This document shows, one piece after another, positions 2,008 to 24,398 of a stretch of DNA of 38,759 bases. Origin of the DNA: Escherichia phage mEpX2; sequence record NC_019705.1; one strand, 5' to 3'. The notes under the pieces are model-generated. The model was given only the letters and a program-made list of their open reading frames with translations, did not search any database and was not told where the DNA came from. The position numbers and the translations under genes were made by a program. Numbering within the stretch: the stretch's first letter is position 1; each line of letters begins with the position of its first letter.

Positions 2008-3281
2008 TGGAAGAACCTAAATACACGATTGACCTGCGAACCAATAACGGCTGGTGGGCAAGGCTGCAGTCCTGGTTTGTCGGCGGGCGTTTAGTCACCC
2101 CAAATCAGGGCTCACAGACGGGGCCTGTTTCGGCCCACGGACACCTGGGCGATTCATCCATTAACGATGAACGGATACTGCAAATTTCGACTGTGTGGCG
2201 CTGCGTGAGCCTGATTTCAACGCTCACGGCATGCTTACCGCTTGATGTCTTCGAAACAGACCAGAATGACAACCGTAAAAAAGTGGATTTGAGCAATCCA
2301 CTGGCGCGACTGCTGCGCTACTCACCGAATCAGTACATGACCGCCCAAGAATTCAGGGAGGCCATGACGATGCAGCTCTGTTTCTACGGTAACGCATATG
2401 CACTTGTGGACCGCAACAGCGCAGGTGACGTGATCAGCCTTCTCCCGCTTCAGTCTGCCAATATGGATGTGAAGCTCGTCGGAAAAAAAGTGGTTTATCG
2501 CTATCAACGCGACAGCGAATACGCCGAATTTTCGCAGAAAGAGATTTTTCACCTTAAAGGCTTCGGATTCACCGGGCTTGTAGGCCTGTCACCCATTGCT
2601 TTTGCCTGTAAATCGGCAGGTGTGGCAGTTGCGATGGAGGACCAGCAGCGAGATTTCTTTGCCAACGGCGCCAAGTCTCCGCAAATCCTCTCAACTGGCG
2701 AAAAAGTGCTAACTGAACAGCAGCGCTCCCAGGTCGAAGAGAACTTCAAAGAGATCGCCGGCGGCCCGGTAAAAAAACGCCTCTGGATTCTGGAAGCGGG
2801 TTTTTCTACATCGGCAATTGGCGTAACTCCGCAGGATGCCGAAATGATGGCGTCCCGAAAATTTCAGGTAAGTGAACTGGCGCGATTCTTTGGCGTACCG
2901 CCTCACCTTGTCGGCGACGTCGAGAAATCAACGAGCTGGGGATCGGGCATCGAGCAGCAGAATCTCGGCTTCCTGCAGTACACCCTGCAGCCCTATATCT
3001 CCAGGTGGGAAAACAGCATTCAGCGGTGGCTTATTCCTGCTAAGGATGTTGGCCGCATTCATGCTGAGCACAACCTCGACGGCCTGCTGAGGGGCGATTC
3101 GGCATCCCGCGCTGCCTTTATGAAGGCAATGGGAGAGGCAGGGCTACGCACCATCAACGAGATGCGACGAACGGACAACCTCCCGCCATTGCCGGGTGGC
3201 GATGTGGCAATGCGCCAGTCGCAATACGTGCCGATCACCGATTTAGGAACCAACAAAGAGCCCCGTAATAACGGGGCTTAA
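2004..3281 (+). CDS. portal protein (HK97 family)
   Basis: 425-aa ORF overlapping terL stop, followed by protease and capsid genes. Confidence 0.85.
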   Translation: MMEEPKYTIDLRTNNGWWARLQSWFVGGRLVTPNQGSQTGPVSAHGHLGDSSINDERILQISTVWRCVSLISTLTACLPLDVFETDQNDNRKKVDLSNPLARLLRYSPNQYMTAQEFREAMTMQLCFYGNAYALVDRNSAGDVISLLPLQSANMDVKLVGKKVVYRYQRDSEYAEFSQKEIFHLKGFGFTGLVGLSPIAFACKSAGVAVAMEDQQRDFFANGAKSPQILSTGEKVLTEQQRSQVEENFKEIAGGPVKKRLWILEAGFSTSAIGVTPQDAEMMASRKFQVSELARFFGVPPHLVGDVEKSTSWGSGIEQQNLGFLQYTLQPYISRWENSIQRWLIPAKDVGRIHAEHNLDGLLRGDSASRAAFMKAMGEAGLRTINEMRRTDNLPPLPGGDVAMRQSQYVPITDLGTNKEPRNNGA

Positions 3282-22142: not shown

Positions 22143-22321
22143 TTCTTCCCACTCCGCAACATCGCATTCAGATATTTGTTGTCATTAACAGAACCGAAAC
22201 TCTTTCGCTTAAGTAATTCCTCTCTCGATGGCATTGGCTTTACGCGTTGGCGAATAATCATTTCTGCCGGAAGAATGCCGGGATTGTATGCAAGTCCTCT
22301 CATGGTAAATTCCTCAGTCAT
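22139..22321 (-). CDS. hypothetical protein
   Basis: 60-aa ORF; ATG overlaps stop of upstream gene (ATGA-type coupling). Confidence 0.4.
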
Positions 22322-22610
22322 TACTGATAGCGCCATAGCGTGAGCGGTAATTACGCAGACGCGGGTCGATATATTCAGGGAAGTTGGTATATGTGGCTTT
22401 GCGGAATGGTCGGATTGATGTCTGGTAAATTCGCTCGCGTTCTTGTTTCTCTGCAAGCCATATACAATGACGAAATTCCTTTTCCTCTTTCGTTTCCTGC
22501 GGTAGCGACATTATCAGGTCGTAGTTTTTTCTGAATTTATCCAGCACCTCCGATACGGAATTGCCGGAACAGCGGCGCGCGTCGTCCGCACCATATAGAG
22601 GCGCTGGCAT
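22314..22610 (-). CDS. hypothetical protein
   Basis: 98-aa ORF in early-left operon. Confidence 0.5.
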
Positions 22611-22626: not shown

Positions 22627-23175
22627 TTATTTAGCTAACTTTTTCCAGATCGCTGAAACGTATTTGGCTTGGTGGATGGCATCATCAAGCGCGTTGTGGC
22701 GAGTTCCTTTGAATGGCATATCTCGCTTAGGGTCGAATCCTATTGCCTTCCCAAGTTCGACGATTGTTCTTACGTCGCGGTCATTCCACCACTGCCACGG
22801 AACTGGCTGCCCTGTCAGCGAATAACTGTTGCGGAGAATAACGCAGTCAAATGATGCTCCATTCCCCCAAACCTGAACGAGTTTGTGGTTGGCGTTCTTT
22901 ATGATGAATTCAGATAACCATGAAAGAGCCGTTGAAAGCTCTTGAGTGTTGCTGGTTAGCGATTTTCTGGCTTCTTCACTCTGTTCCATCCACCATAAAA
23001 TCGTTGAAGCGTCAGGACGCGCCCGATATCGCATTGATGACTCAAGCGAGATATTTACCGAGAACTCTTCTCCTGTTTCTCCGGTATTCGGGTCAAAGAA
23101 TACCGCCCCAATAGAAATAACTGGCGCATATGGCCCGTTGCCCATTGTTTCAAGGTCAACCATTAAGTGATTCAT
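22627..23175 (-). CDS. DEDD-family 3'-5' exonuclease
   Basis: 182-aa ORF with DLET acidic motif and C-terminal H...D motif of DnaQ-like exonucleases. Confidence 0.7.
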   Translation of the reverse strand: MNHLMVDLETMGNGPYAPVISIGAVFFDPNTGETGEEFSVNISLESSMRYRARPDASTILWWMEQSEEARKSLTSNTQELSTALSWLSEFIIKNANHKLVQVWGNGASFDCVILRNSYSLTGQPVPWQWWNDRDVRTIVELGKAIGFDPKRDMPFKGTRHNALDDAIHQAKYVSAIWKKLAK

Positions 23176-23183
23176 GTAAGTCC

Positions 23184-23690
23184 TTAAATTGCGTGAATAG
23201 CGTGACGAGGGAAGGGGAGAGTTACTGGTGCAAAGGGTATATCATCGTCAAAATCCATCGGAGGTTCGTTGTGTTGTGCTGGTGATGATTGCTGCTGTGG
23301 CTTCTGTGATTGCCTGCTGGCTGCTTGTTGTTTGCTGTCGCCAATTCCGCCAAGCATTTGCATCACGCCATTAATTCCGACATGAACCTCGGTTGTGTAA
23401 CGGTCTTGCCCTGACTGGTCTTTCCACTTTCTGGTTCTCAGCATTCCCTCGAAATAAATCTGATCACCTTTTTTCACATACTGCCCCACGACCTCAGCCA
23501 GTTTCCCGGATACAGCAACACGATGCCATTCAGTCAATTCCTTTTGCTCGCCAGTATTTTTATCTCGCCATTGTTCTGACGTGGCTATTGTCAGGTTAGC
23601 GAACGCTGTACCTGATGGTGAGTATCGAACTTCCGGGTCTTGTCCTACCCGACCAAGGATAATCACCTTATTTACGCCTCTGCTTGCCAT
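23184..23690 (-). CDS. ssb: single-stranded DNA-binding protein
   Basis: 168-aa ORF with OB-fold N-terminus closely resembling bacterial SSB and [10 protein letters not shown] motif, here followed by 15 extra residues. Confidence 0.85.
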
Positions 23691-24398
23691 TTATGCCGCC
23701 TGTTTTAGTTCGTTAACTCTGATGTTCATTACCTGAACGCATTTAGCCTGCGCCTCCTCATTGCCAGCCATTAATTGCCAGTCACGCTGATAACGCTCGA
23801 TGAGTTTTTTCTTGTCAGTTTCTGTTGACGCATAATCGCTGAAGTCTTTCAGGATTTGTTCGCAGTCAACCGATGGAGATTTCTGGTTGGTATTTTCTGG
23901 TGATGGTTTGTTATCTGATGCTGGTATTGCCCATCCCGGCAGCGATGGAGGGAGCCAGTAAAATCCTGTTCCATCCTTGAGTTTTGCCCTGTGCCATCCC
24001 TGCTTTTTATCGAGAGATGTTTGTGCGAAACCTTCCTCAAGGTTATACAGATACCGACCGATTCCCCACTGAACGGCAGCGCGCTTCATTGCACCGGAAC
24101 GACCACCTTTGACGGCTTCTACCTGCGTGTTTTCAGCAGCATCCCATTTGGTTACCCATTCGGAATCAATCTTTATTGATATGCCGCATTCAACGCCGCC
24201 GTTGTTGGGAATATCGCGGTATTCATTGCGCCATCCTGCTTTGCCGCAAACATCGTCCAGGCGTTTCATGATTGCCCTGTTCGTGACATAAGCCAGCACC
24301 ATAGCCCACACCTTGCCATCGCGTGTTTTACCGCTTTGCTGTATTCGCCATTCGATATCTTCAGGGCTGAATGGCTCATCGAATTTATTCAAATCCAT
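23691..24398 (-). CDS. single-strand annealing recombinase (Erf/Rad52-type)
   Basis: 235-aa ORF upstream of ssb and exonuclease in a recombination module. Confidence 0.6.
   Translation of the reverse strand: MDLNKFDEPFSPEDIEWRIQQSGKTRDGKVWAMVLAYVTNRAIMKRLDDVCGKAGWRNEYRDIPNNGGVECGISIKIDSEWVTKWDAAENTQVEAVKGGRSGAMKRAAVQWGIGRYLYNLEEGFAQTSLDKKQGWHRAKLKDGTGFYWLPPSLPGWAIPASDNKPSPENTNQKSPSVDCEQILKDFSDYASTETDKKKLIERYQRDWQLMAGNEEAQAKCVQVMNIRVNELKQAA

Follow-up and report, generated by a model that had tools for sequence, protein, structure and literature searches.

A conserved 15-residue peptide follows the acidic tip of the SSB of phage mEpX2 and of its relatives on Enterobacterales mobile elements

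The window analyzed here is the whole 38,759-nucleotide stretch of Escherichia phage mEpX2 DNA (sequence record NC_019705.1). Its early-left recombination module lies on the minus strand and contains, in order, genes for an annealase, SSB, a DEDDh exonuclease, and Abc2 (Table 1). The annealase stop codon directly abuts the ssb start codon (...TAAATG), and the Shine-Dalgarno sequence that overlaps the ssb stop codon serves the downstream exonuclease gene, with its ATG at 23175. The annealase gene carries the annotation "Erf-like," yet its Pfam match is Rad52_Rad22 (PF04098), not ERF (PF04404). Homology between mEpX2 and phage HK75 stops exactly at the ssb stop codon, where HK75 has abc2 downstream instead. 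Within the SSB, the Pfam match spans residues 6 to 104. The SSB annotated in mEpX2 record PV340544.1 is 100% identical to the one described here, and a 661-nt query from the window matches that record at 100% identity.

Table 1. Features in and around ssb of mEpX2, in order along the minus strand (positions are those of the window)
Feature	Position	Strand	Evidence and remarks
Rad52/Rad22-family single-strand annealing protein	23691..24398	minus	PF04098, E=5e-26; upstream of ssb
ssb	23184..23690	minus	168 codons + TAA; ORF listing; PF00436, E=1.6e-36
OB-fold DNA-binding/tetramerization domain	23346..23690	minus	residues 1-115; AlphaFold2 pLDDT ~94, OB-fold strand pattern; pN/pS 0.25
Disordered linker	23265..23345	minus	residues 116-142; pLDDT <50; pN/pS 0.52
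Acidic SSB-Ct tip, here internal	23232..23264	minus	residues/codons 143-153; sequence
15-residue tail	23187..23231	minus	residues/codons 154-168; sequence
Ala154 codon	23229..23231	minus	HNH genes of related phages are inserted just upstream of Ala154
ssb stop TAA (23186..23184) overlapping Shine-Dalgarno TAAGGA	23181..23186	minus	read from sequence
DEDDh exonuclease (Rv2179c-like)	22627..23175	minus	PF16473, E=1.3e-73; downstream of ssb
Abc2 anti-RecBCD protein	22314..22610	minus	PF11043, E=1.6e-61; last gene of the recombination module

By fold, linker, and tip, the mEpX2 protein is a bacterial-type SSB. It has an OB fold, a variable disordered linker, and an acidic tip of the D-D-D-I-P-F type, and it scores 166.9 bits against TIGR00621 (cut-off, 53.95). 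What it lacks is a free terminal Phe with its alpha-carboxylate: 15 residues come after Phe153 and, the tail being placed directly after the SSB-Ct tip, the final Phe of the tip is no longer the C terminus. An earlier note on this DNA had pointed to these 15 residues; the ORF listing and the translation confirm that they are real, and the peptide quoted there is correct. The range that it gave, 23184 to 23228, holds 14 of the extension codons and the stop codon but starts 3 nt late, so that the Ala154 codon (23231..23229) was missed. Its premise that the tip is normally the extreme C terminus is well founded. Chromosomal-type SSBs retrieved from ~70 gammaproteobacterial species all end at the IPF tip, nearly all of them at DDDIPF, and no NCBIfam SSB model, TIGR00621 included, matches beyond residue 153, which leaves the tail uncovered.

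The tail is far from unique to mEpX2. The 168-aa SSB is identical in the independent records of mEpX2, mEp235, and HK75, and the Salmonella phages epsilon34, g341c, and NM-3, with ssb DNA that is 90% identical, encode an identical tail peptide. The earlier note had named a commonly shared extension as part of what would speak against its proposal, and among the SSBs of related phages the same extension is indeed common. A search of a collection of 5.8 billion proteins, clustered at 90% identity and with the best 120 clusters considered, returned a 15-residue tail after the tip in ~110 of these 120, down to 66% identity, with Klebsiella, Citrobacter, Salmonella, Escherichia, Enterobacter, Kluyvera, Phytobacter, and Pluralibacter as hosts. 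Of 5,426 complete E. coli genomes, 405 (~7%) carry DNA encoding tip and tail, which PGAP labels ssb. Variant tails occur also in Providencia, Proteus, Mixta, Chimaeribacter, Scandinavium, Trabulsiella, Pectobacterium, Pantoea, and Klebsiella.

Two classes of tail can be told apart, both 15 to 16 residues long and placed directly after IPF. Class 1, defined by [AS]P[VI][TG]L.[FY].[RK]H.[IV][HY].[IL], has the consensus [AS]P[VI][TG]LP[FY]PRH[TA]I[HY][AV]I in 126 distinct proteins with zero indels, and the mEpX2 tail is this consensus. Class 2, defined by [LI]G.GYG..[RK].A[IV][HY]A[IL]S, has the form [LI]G[HF]GYG[VI]CRKAIYAIS. Intermediates such as LGHGYGIAKHAAAAL exist, and distant forms include APIGLPYPRHAIYVI (Providencia and Proteus), AYIGLQYPSHAIHSI (Mixta), and SPVGLQYGKHRVYAL. 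The most widely shared part is the C-terminal half, [RK]xA[IV][HY]x[IL]. Among the homologs the tip ends anywhere from residue 140 to residue 187, the linker varying freely in sequence and length and the tail being fixed in length. The tail marks a subfamily of bacterial-type SSBs that are encoded on mobile elements of Enterobacterales and not at the chromosomal ssb locus. Some extension after the tip, other short types included, is seen in 13 of the 150 best representatives at 50% identity.

Two members of the collection deserve separate mention. In P0001, from Salmonella enterica serovar Eko (a cluster of 588 member sequences), the last three residues are gone and the protein ends ...PFPRHAI; this is consistent with the loss of one copy of the direct repeat CAC-GCN-ATT (HAI-HAI), which lies at 23187 to 23204 in mEpX2. 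The sole class-2 tail outside Enterobacterales, LGYGYGVCRGALYGIS, comes from a contig titled Pseudomonas lundensis I31 (L182), which is possibly a contaminant or mis-assigned.

The pattern of codon changes between diverged lineages argues that the tail is maintained as a protein sequence. In 14 hand-picked diverged pairs, in which synonymous sites are near saturation everywhere (pS, 0.70 to 0.91; tail, 0.70), pN/pS was 0.25 for the OB fold, 0.52 for the linker, 0.11 for the tip, and 0.23 for the tail. The tail differs from the linker with a Fisher P value of 7e-9, calculated over these 14 pairs, which are not independent of each other. The internal tip is nearly invariant among tailed SSBs, with a pN/pS of 0.04 to 0.11 across both codon tests. 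Individual comparisons convey the same picture: the tails of L163 and L186 (Scandinavium versus Trabulsiella) differ by 9 synonymous and 2 nonsynonymous changes, and L042 encodes exactly the mEpX2 tail peptide with 7 synonymous differences. These comparisons indicate that the peptide, not the DNA, is what selection keeps in the tail. On the same grounds, the 15 codons are to be read as a genuine translated C-terminal peptide kept by selection. The lost stop codon or sequencing error that the earlier note had entertained is refuted, the tail being present in hundreds of independent sequences and under purifying selection.

Close relatives give a different value. In the E. coli/Salmonella set, the tail has a pN/pS of 0.53 at a pS of 0.20, compared with a pS of 0.48 to 0.57 in the rest of the gene. 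We consider this ratio misleading and attribute the low pS to mosaic recombination; low pS nonetheless weakens the selection signal within this subset. The IMG/VR loci, which were found by the tail pattern and are thus biased at 9 codons, were excluded from the close-relative test and used for context counts only. Mosaicism is evident from sliding identity against L281 and L016: the annealase gene is ~98% identical, the OB fold and linker of ssb 60 to 80%, and the sequence from the tip onward 98 to 100%, the last block comprising the tail, the exonuclease gene, and abc2. Since the near-identical block resumes at the tip, the ssb core is a swapped cassette and the tail travels with the downstream block. 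The breakpoints of the cassette are the ssb start codon and, on the right-hand side, the tip-coding DNA. From these positions, the conserved tip DNA seems to serve as a recombination junction.

The boundary between tip and tail is also, as far as paired alleles tell, the insertion site of a free-standing putative HNH homing endonuclease. The SSB of phage Huey is identical to that of mEpX2 up to ...HNEPPM (100% over the first 115 residues). Its tip is recoded to NFDDEIPF, with 7 nt changes in 30 next to the insert, and a TAA follows. The insert of 441 nt, which separates F153 from P155, supplies a ribosome-binding site of its own and an HNH endonuclease ORF. Reading on in frame, this ORF takes in the last 14 tail codons, which are identical to those of mEpX2, and terminates at the former stop codon of ssb. 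Sf6 (genes 27 and 26), CurroJimenez_Bas106, and others have the same arrangement with an insert of 447 nt; in Sf6 the SSB ends ...DSDIPF and the tail belongs to the endonuclease ORF. Given that "PDEA" variants (...PDEA-PVTLPF) retain the Ala154 codon, the insertion falls exactly between Phe153 (23232) and Ala154 (23231). Near-identical alleles (mEpX2 versus Huey) are polymorphic for the presence of HNH at one precise site, and the insert in occupied alleles, whose tips read PPMNFDDEIPF or PPMNFDDSDIPF, is flanked by recoded sequence, as expected of a homing site. Among 120 IMG/VR sites that encode PVTLPFPRH, the peptide is fused to the SSB tip in 94 and ends an HNH ORF in 24, and 2 are broken. 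As to which gene owned the tail, HNH homologs from unrelated contexts stop short of the tail, at the position of "...KPIY," and phrog_2340 covers residues 1 to 143 only of Sf6 gp26; the tail therefore belonged to ssb first.

Other traces of endonuclease genes were seen near ssb. Klebsiella phage phiKp_30 has, between ssb and the exonuclease gene (L007, 1741 to 1935), a decayed HNH gene that is unannotated in its record, with the start (MKICSRCH) and the end surviving around an internal deletion. In L279 (IMGVR_UViG_2654587985_000001, 2210 to 3231), an SSB ending ...NFDDEIPF is followed by a 165-aa endonuclease-like ORF and then abc2. This ORF has HNH_3-like motifs by eye and ends ...HTHVGLIKNKKIWRHL, and the following 900 nt do not encode the tail. 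The arrangement suggests that a second type of endonuclease occupies the same site as the HNH gene. HNH relatives of Sf6 gp26 also adjoin ssb in the unrelated phages Mt1B1_P17, ACG-M12, and Vibrio phages K289 and K226, and this endonuclease family may target ssb genes repeatedly.

Besides the tailed and the HNH-split alleles there is a third state, represented by SSBs that are ~91% identical to that of mEpX2 and end ...DDIPF with no tail and no HNH gene (P0008 and P0011); the DNA downstream of these ssb genes is unrelated to that of mEpX2. The idea that every canonical-tip allele of the clade carries an HNH gene was dropped when this tail-less, HNH-less state was found (L299/L300). After the ssb stop codon, L299 and L300 have an 80-nt spacer with a GC-rich inverted repeat (cacggaggcgg...cgcctcc; 2960 to 3040) and then an unannotated 112-aa gene without a Pfam match. 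Going by these alleles, nature has repeatedly made the tail truncation. The HNH-split phages Sf6, Huey, and CurroJimenez propagate with a free-tip SSB. As truncated alleles sit in plaque-forming phages, the tail is accessory and dispensable for plaque formation.

The genomic settings of tailed SSBs are diverse. They are encoded by lambdoid and P22-like prophages, phage-plasmids, a conjugative plasmid, and an ICE. Upstream of the tailed ssb lies a Rad52-like annealase gene in mEpX2 and L008, a true ERF gene in a Proteus prophage (L293), and a gene for a Sak4-like AAA_24 protein in Klebsiella aerogenes (L011) and in L013. Two phage-plasmids (L290 and L292) have a tailed ssb without any annealase gene. 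Likewise, no annealase gene accompanies the tailed ssb beside a type IA topoisomerase gene on a conjugative IncFIC/FII plasmid (L291) or the one between topoisomerase and type IV pilus genes in a Salmonella ICE (L295). The downstream genes vary, too, and no constant element-encoded neighbor was found among the tailed-ssb loci compared. Abc2 is frequent near tailed ssb but not universal, the candidates in L011 and L013 lying below or missing the Pfam threshold. The single constant across these settings is a mobile element in an enterobacterial host.

Structure prediction adds to this picture. AlphaFold2 monomer models, made with 20 and with 136 aligned tailed SSBs, give the OB fold a pLDDT of ~94 and residues 117 to 168 values below 50, and neither of them has a confident contact between the tail and its own OB fold. 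In these models the tail, whose length is fixed, has the character of a disordered short linear motif. A PDB sequence search with the tip-plus-tail peptides of both classes yielded no similar chain, and the strings of the tip junction and the tail motif have no mention in the searchable full-text literature. In the epsilon34 genome paper the gene is called a bacterial-type SSB and the tail is not discussed. The GenBank note to Sf6 gene 26, on the other hand, already records 14 residues identical to "E. coli SSB."

How does this protein compare with known systems? T7 gp2.5 and T4 gp32 are likewise phage ssDNA-binding proteins with a C-terminal peptide, an acidic tail that organizes partner proteins (cited in PMC5928155), but they have unrelated folds or lineages. 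The C-terminal Phe of T7 gp2.5 is its last residue, and we know of no capped-tip variant of either protein. The closest counterpart, the E. coli-type chromosomal SSB, shares the OB fold (~70% identity), the three-part architecture, and the same tip sequence, but it ends at the tip Phe, whereas the mEpX2 SSB adds 15 conserved residues and so is missing the alpha-carboxylate used by partner pockets (PMC10164576). The engineered SSB-GFP fusion resembles the mEpX2 protein in that residues after Phe internalize the tip; it is, however, artificial and bulky and either acts as a dominant negative or must be accompanied by a wild-type copy (PMC7293020), while the mEpX2 tail is natural, 15 residues long, sequence specific, and conserved. 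Phage HK620 offers another parallel, a temperate-phage SSB encoded beside a single-strand annealing protein, and there a C-terminal peptide of SSB mediates functional interaction with the cognate Sak4 (PMC5928155). Yet the HK620 protein is a distant type of SSB with its functional motif, NDYPPF, at the true C terminus, whereas the mEpX2-type tail accompanies three different annealase families, or none. Finally, Sf6 genes 27 (ssb) and 26 (HNH) represent the same locus and the same tail DNA, of which mEpX2 has the uninterrupted state.

In SSB, the terminal Phe with its free carboxylate is the docking signal for more than 12 replication, repair, and recombination enzymes, and deleting or blocking this signal in E. 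coli is lethal or dominant negative. In the pockets of partner proteins the terminal Phe is buried, with its alpha-carboxyl group held by a basic lip, and binding is lost once this Phe is deleted (PMC10164576). An E. coli SSB with GFP fused directly to its C terminus fails to bind ExoI and acts in a dominant-negative manner (PMC7293020). Considering these precedents, we infer as most reasonable that an internalized tip would change or block the docking of host partners, as the earlier note had expected. The tail may then be viewed as a switch that sets the specificity of the SSB-Ct hub signal. With the free alpha-carboxylate gone, canonical docking in host pockets such as those of ExoI, RecQ, RecG, PriA, and chi would be prevented or strongly weakened, and element ssDNA coated by the tailed SSB would not recruit the full host set.

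Capping cannot account for everything, however, because the tail sequence is itself conserved, no part of the gene is under tighter constraint than the internal tip, and the spacing between tip and tail is invariant. Simple blocking is insufficient, since a blocked tip should decay, yet this tip does not. Very strong selection on the tip and a tip-to-tail spacing that never varies rather suggest that tip and tail together make up a single composite docking peptide, ~26 residues long, whose partner all these elements have in common. Such a partner would most likely be host encoded, because no element-encoded neighbor is constant. That tip and tail act as a composite, gated or retargeted docking peptide for a host-encoded factor is the reading that we favor, and we would rate its chances as slightly short of even. 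In a gating variant, the tip might be capped until cleavage or until DNA is bound. We are more hesitant about the fuller proposal, possible though on balance doubtful, that a dedicated peptide turns the universal SSB-Ct signal private by gating the tip or by retargeting it to one host factor, thereby shielding element ssDNA. The other short, unrelated extensions found after the tip in distant SSBs are a reminder that capping itself, and not a specific partner, could matter.

Several other functions for the peptide can be envisaged. Conceivably, the tail acts within SSB itself, binding a neighboring tetramer, the OB fold, or the acidic tip and so tuning cooperativity or auto-inhibiting the tip. 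A basic and hydrophobic tail beside a very acidic tip would suit such a role, as would the lack of constancy among external neighbor genes; moreover, in T4 gp32 a basic peptide at the terminus serves cooperativity, and in E. coli SSB there is weak contact between the tip and the protein's own OB fold. We nonetheless regard this as decidedly improbable, as the AlphaFold2 monomer model made with 136 sequences has no confident contact of tail and OB fold and the tail pLDDT stays below 50. Barely plausible is a beta-sliding-clamp binding motif that tethers the element SSB to the host clamp. Clamp binders have the consensus QL[SD]LF or QLxLxL, including a hexapeptide form, and P-V-T-L-P-F in mEpX2 is reminiscent of QLxLxL/F, with x-[VI]-x-L-x-[FY] being kept in class-1 tails; yet what the tails share most widely is the C-terminal half, not this hexapeptide, and we rejected this candidate on the absence of the hallmark Gln and the misfit of class-2 tails (G-H-G-Y-G-V). 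A degron or processing signal, with a host AAA+ or other protease recognizing the non-polar, basic peptide at the C terminus and turning SSB over or clipping it, is a stronger rival, though we think it unlikely. It would explain the conservation of both tip and tail, and the tail is disordered and exposed in the AlphaFold2 models. Both classes of tail share [RK]-[HK]-A-I followed by a non-polar end, and P0001 ends exactly ...PRHAI. The published ClpX degron with which we compared the tail, a single sequence, is C-motif-2 of MuA, CILEQNRRKKAI (PMC12723719). Class-1 tails offer R-H-A-I and then H-A-I, class-2 tails R-K-A-I-Y-A-I-S, and an RHAI end is found only in P0001. The likeness to RRKKAI is, however, short and in most tails not at the extreme C terminus, and 15 conserved positions are more than known degrons need. 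The version in which the protein is a "pro-SSB," with clipping that exposes or removes the tip at a chosen time, seems to us similarly unlikely.

Two further explanations would make the peptide incidental. Conservation might be mainly at the level of DNA or RNA, with the 45 nt serving as a recombination linker where two modules meet, as the target or flank of the homing endonuclease, or in translational coupling to the gene that follows. The low tail pS in E. coli/Salmonella phages (just 0.20 versus 0.48 to 0.57 elsewhere in the gene) would be in keeping with this, as would mosaic breakpoints at the tip and directly after the stop codon, the overlap of the ssb stop codon with the Shine-Dalgarno sequence of the next gene, and the targeting of the same spot by the HNH gene. 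But diverged lineages have kept the peptide even though the synonymous sites of the tail are close to saturation between them (pS, 0.70), and L042 has the identical peptide despite its 7 synonymous changes. The low pS is itself explained by the movement of the tail with a downstream block of 98 to 100% identity, and tails are kept in plasmids and ICEs whose downstream DNA is unrelated, so that we deem a nucleic acid-level cause very unlikely. We give almost no credence to the view that the tail is an accident, be it a lost stop codon, a sequencing error, or the scar of a deleted HNH gene that had owned the tail. It is true that in Sf6, Huey, and 24 of the 120 IMG/VR sites the tail ends the HNH ORF and not SSB; still, the tail is identical in independent records and under purifying selection. 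The scar in particular was rejected, as HNH homologs elsewhere have no tail and divergent tails are found in SSB lineages without an HNH gene.

To return to the docking peptide that we favor, a large natural SSB family that keeps the docking signal and yet caps it is unexpected from the textbook model. Natural controls are available, as this SSB occurs with its tail, with an HNH gene between tip and tail, and with no tail at all. Tailed SSBs provide a natural way to learn how mobile elements keep their ssDNA metabolism apart from that of the host, and they may matter for recombineering in which phage annealases are paired with SSBs. If tip and tail do make the SSB-Ct signal private, element ssDNA would be shielded from the host nucleases, helicases, or sensors that SSB recruits, and the tail would represent an unrecognized and widespread layer of host takeover or counter-defense that operates through the SSB interactome.
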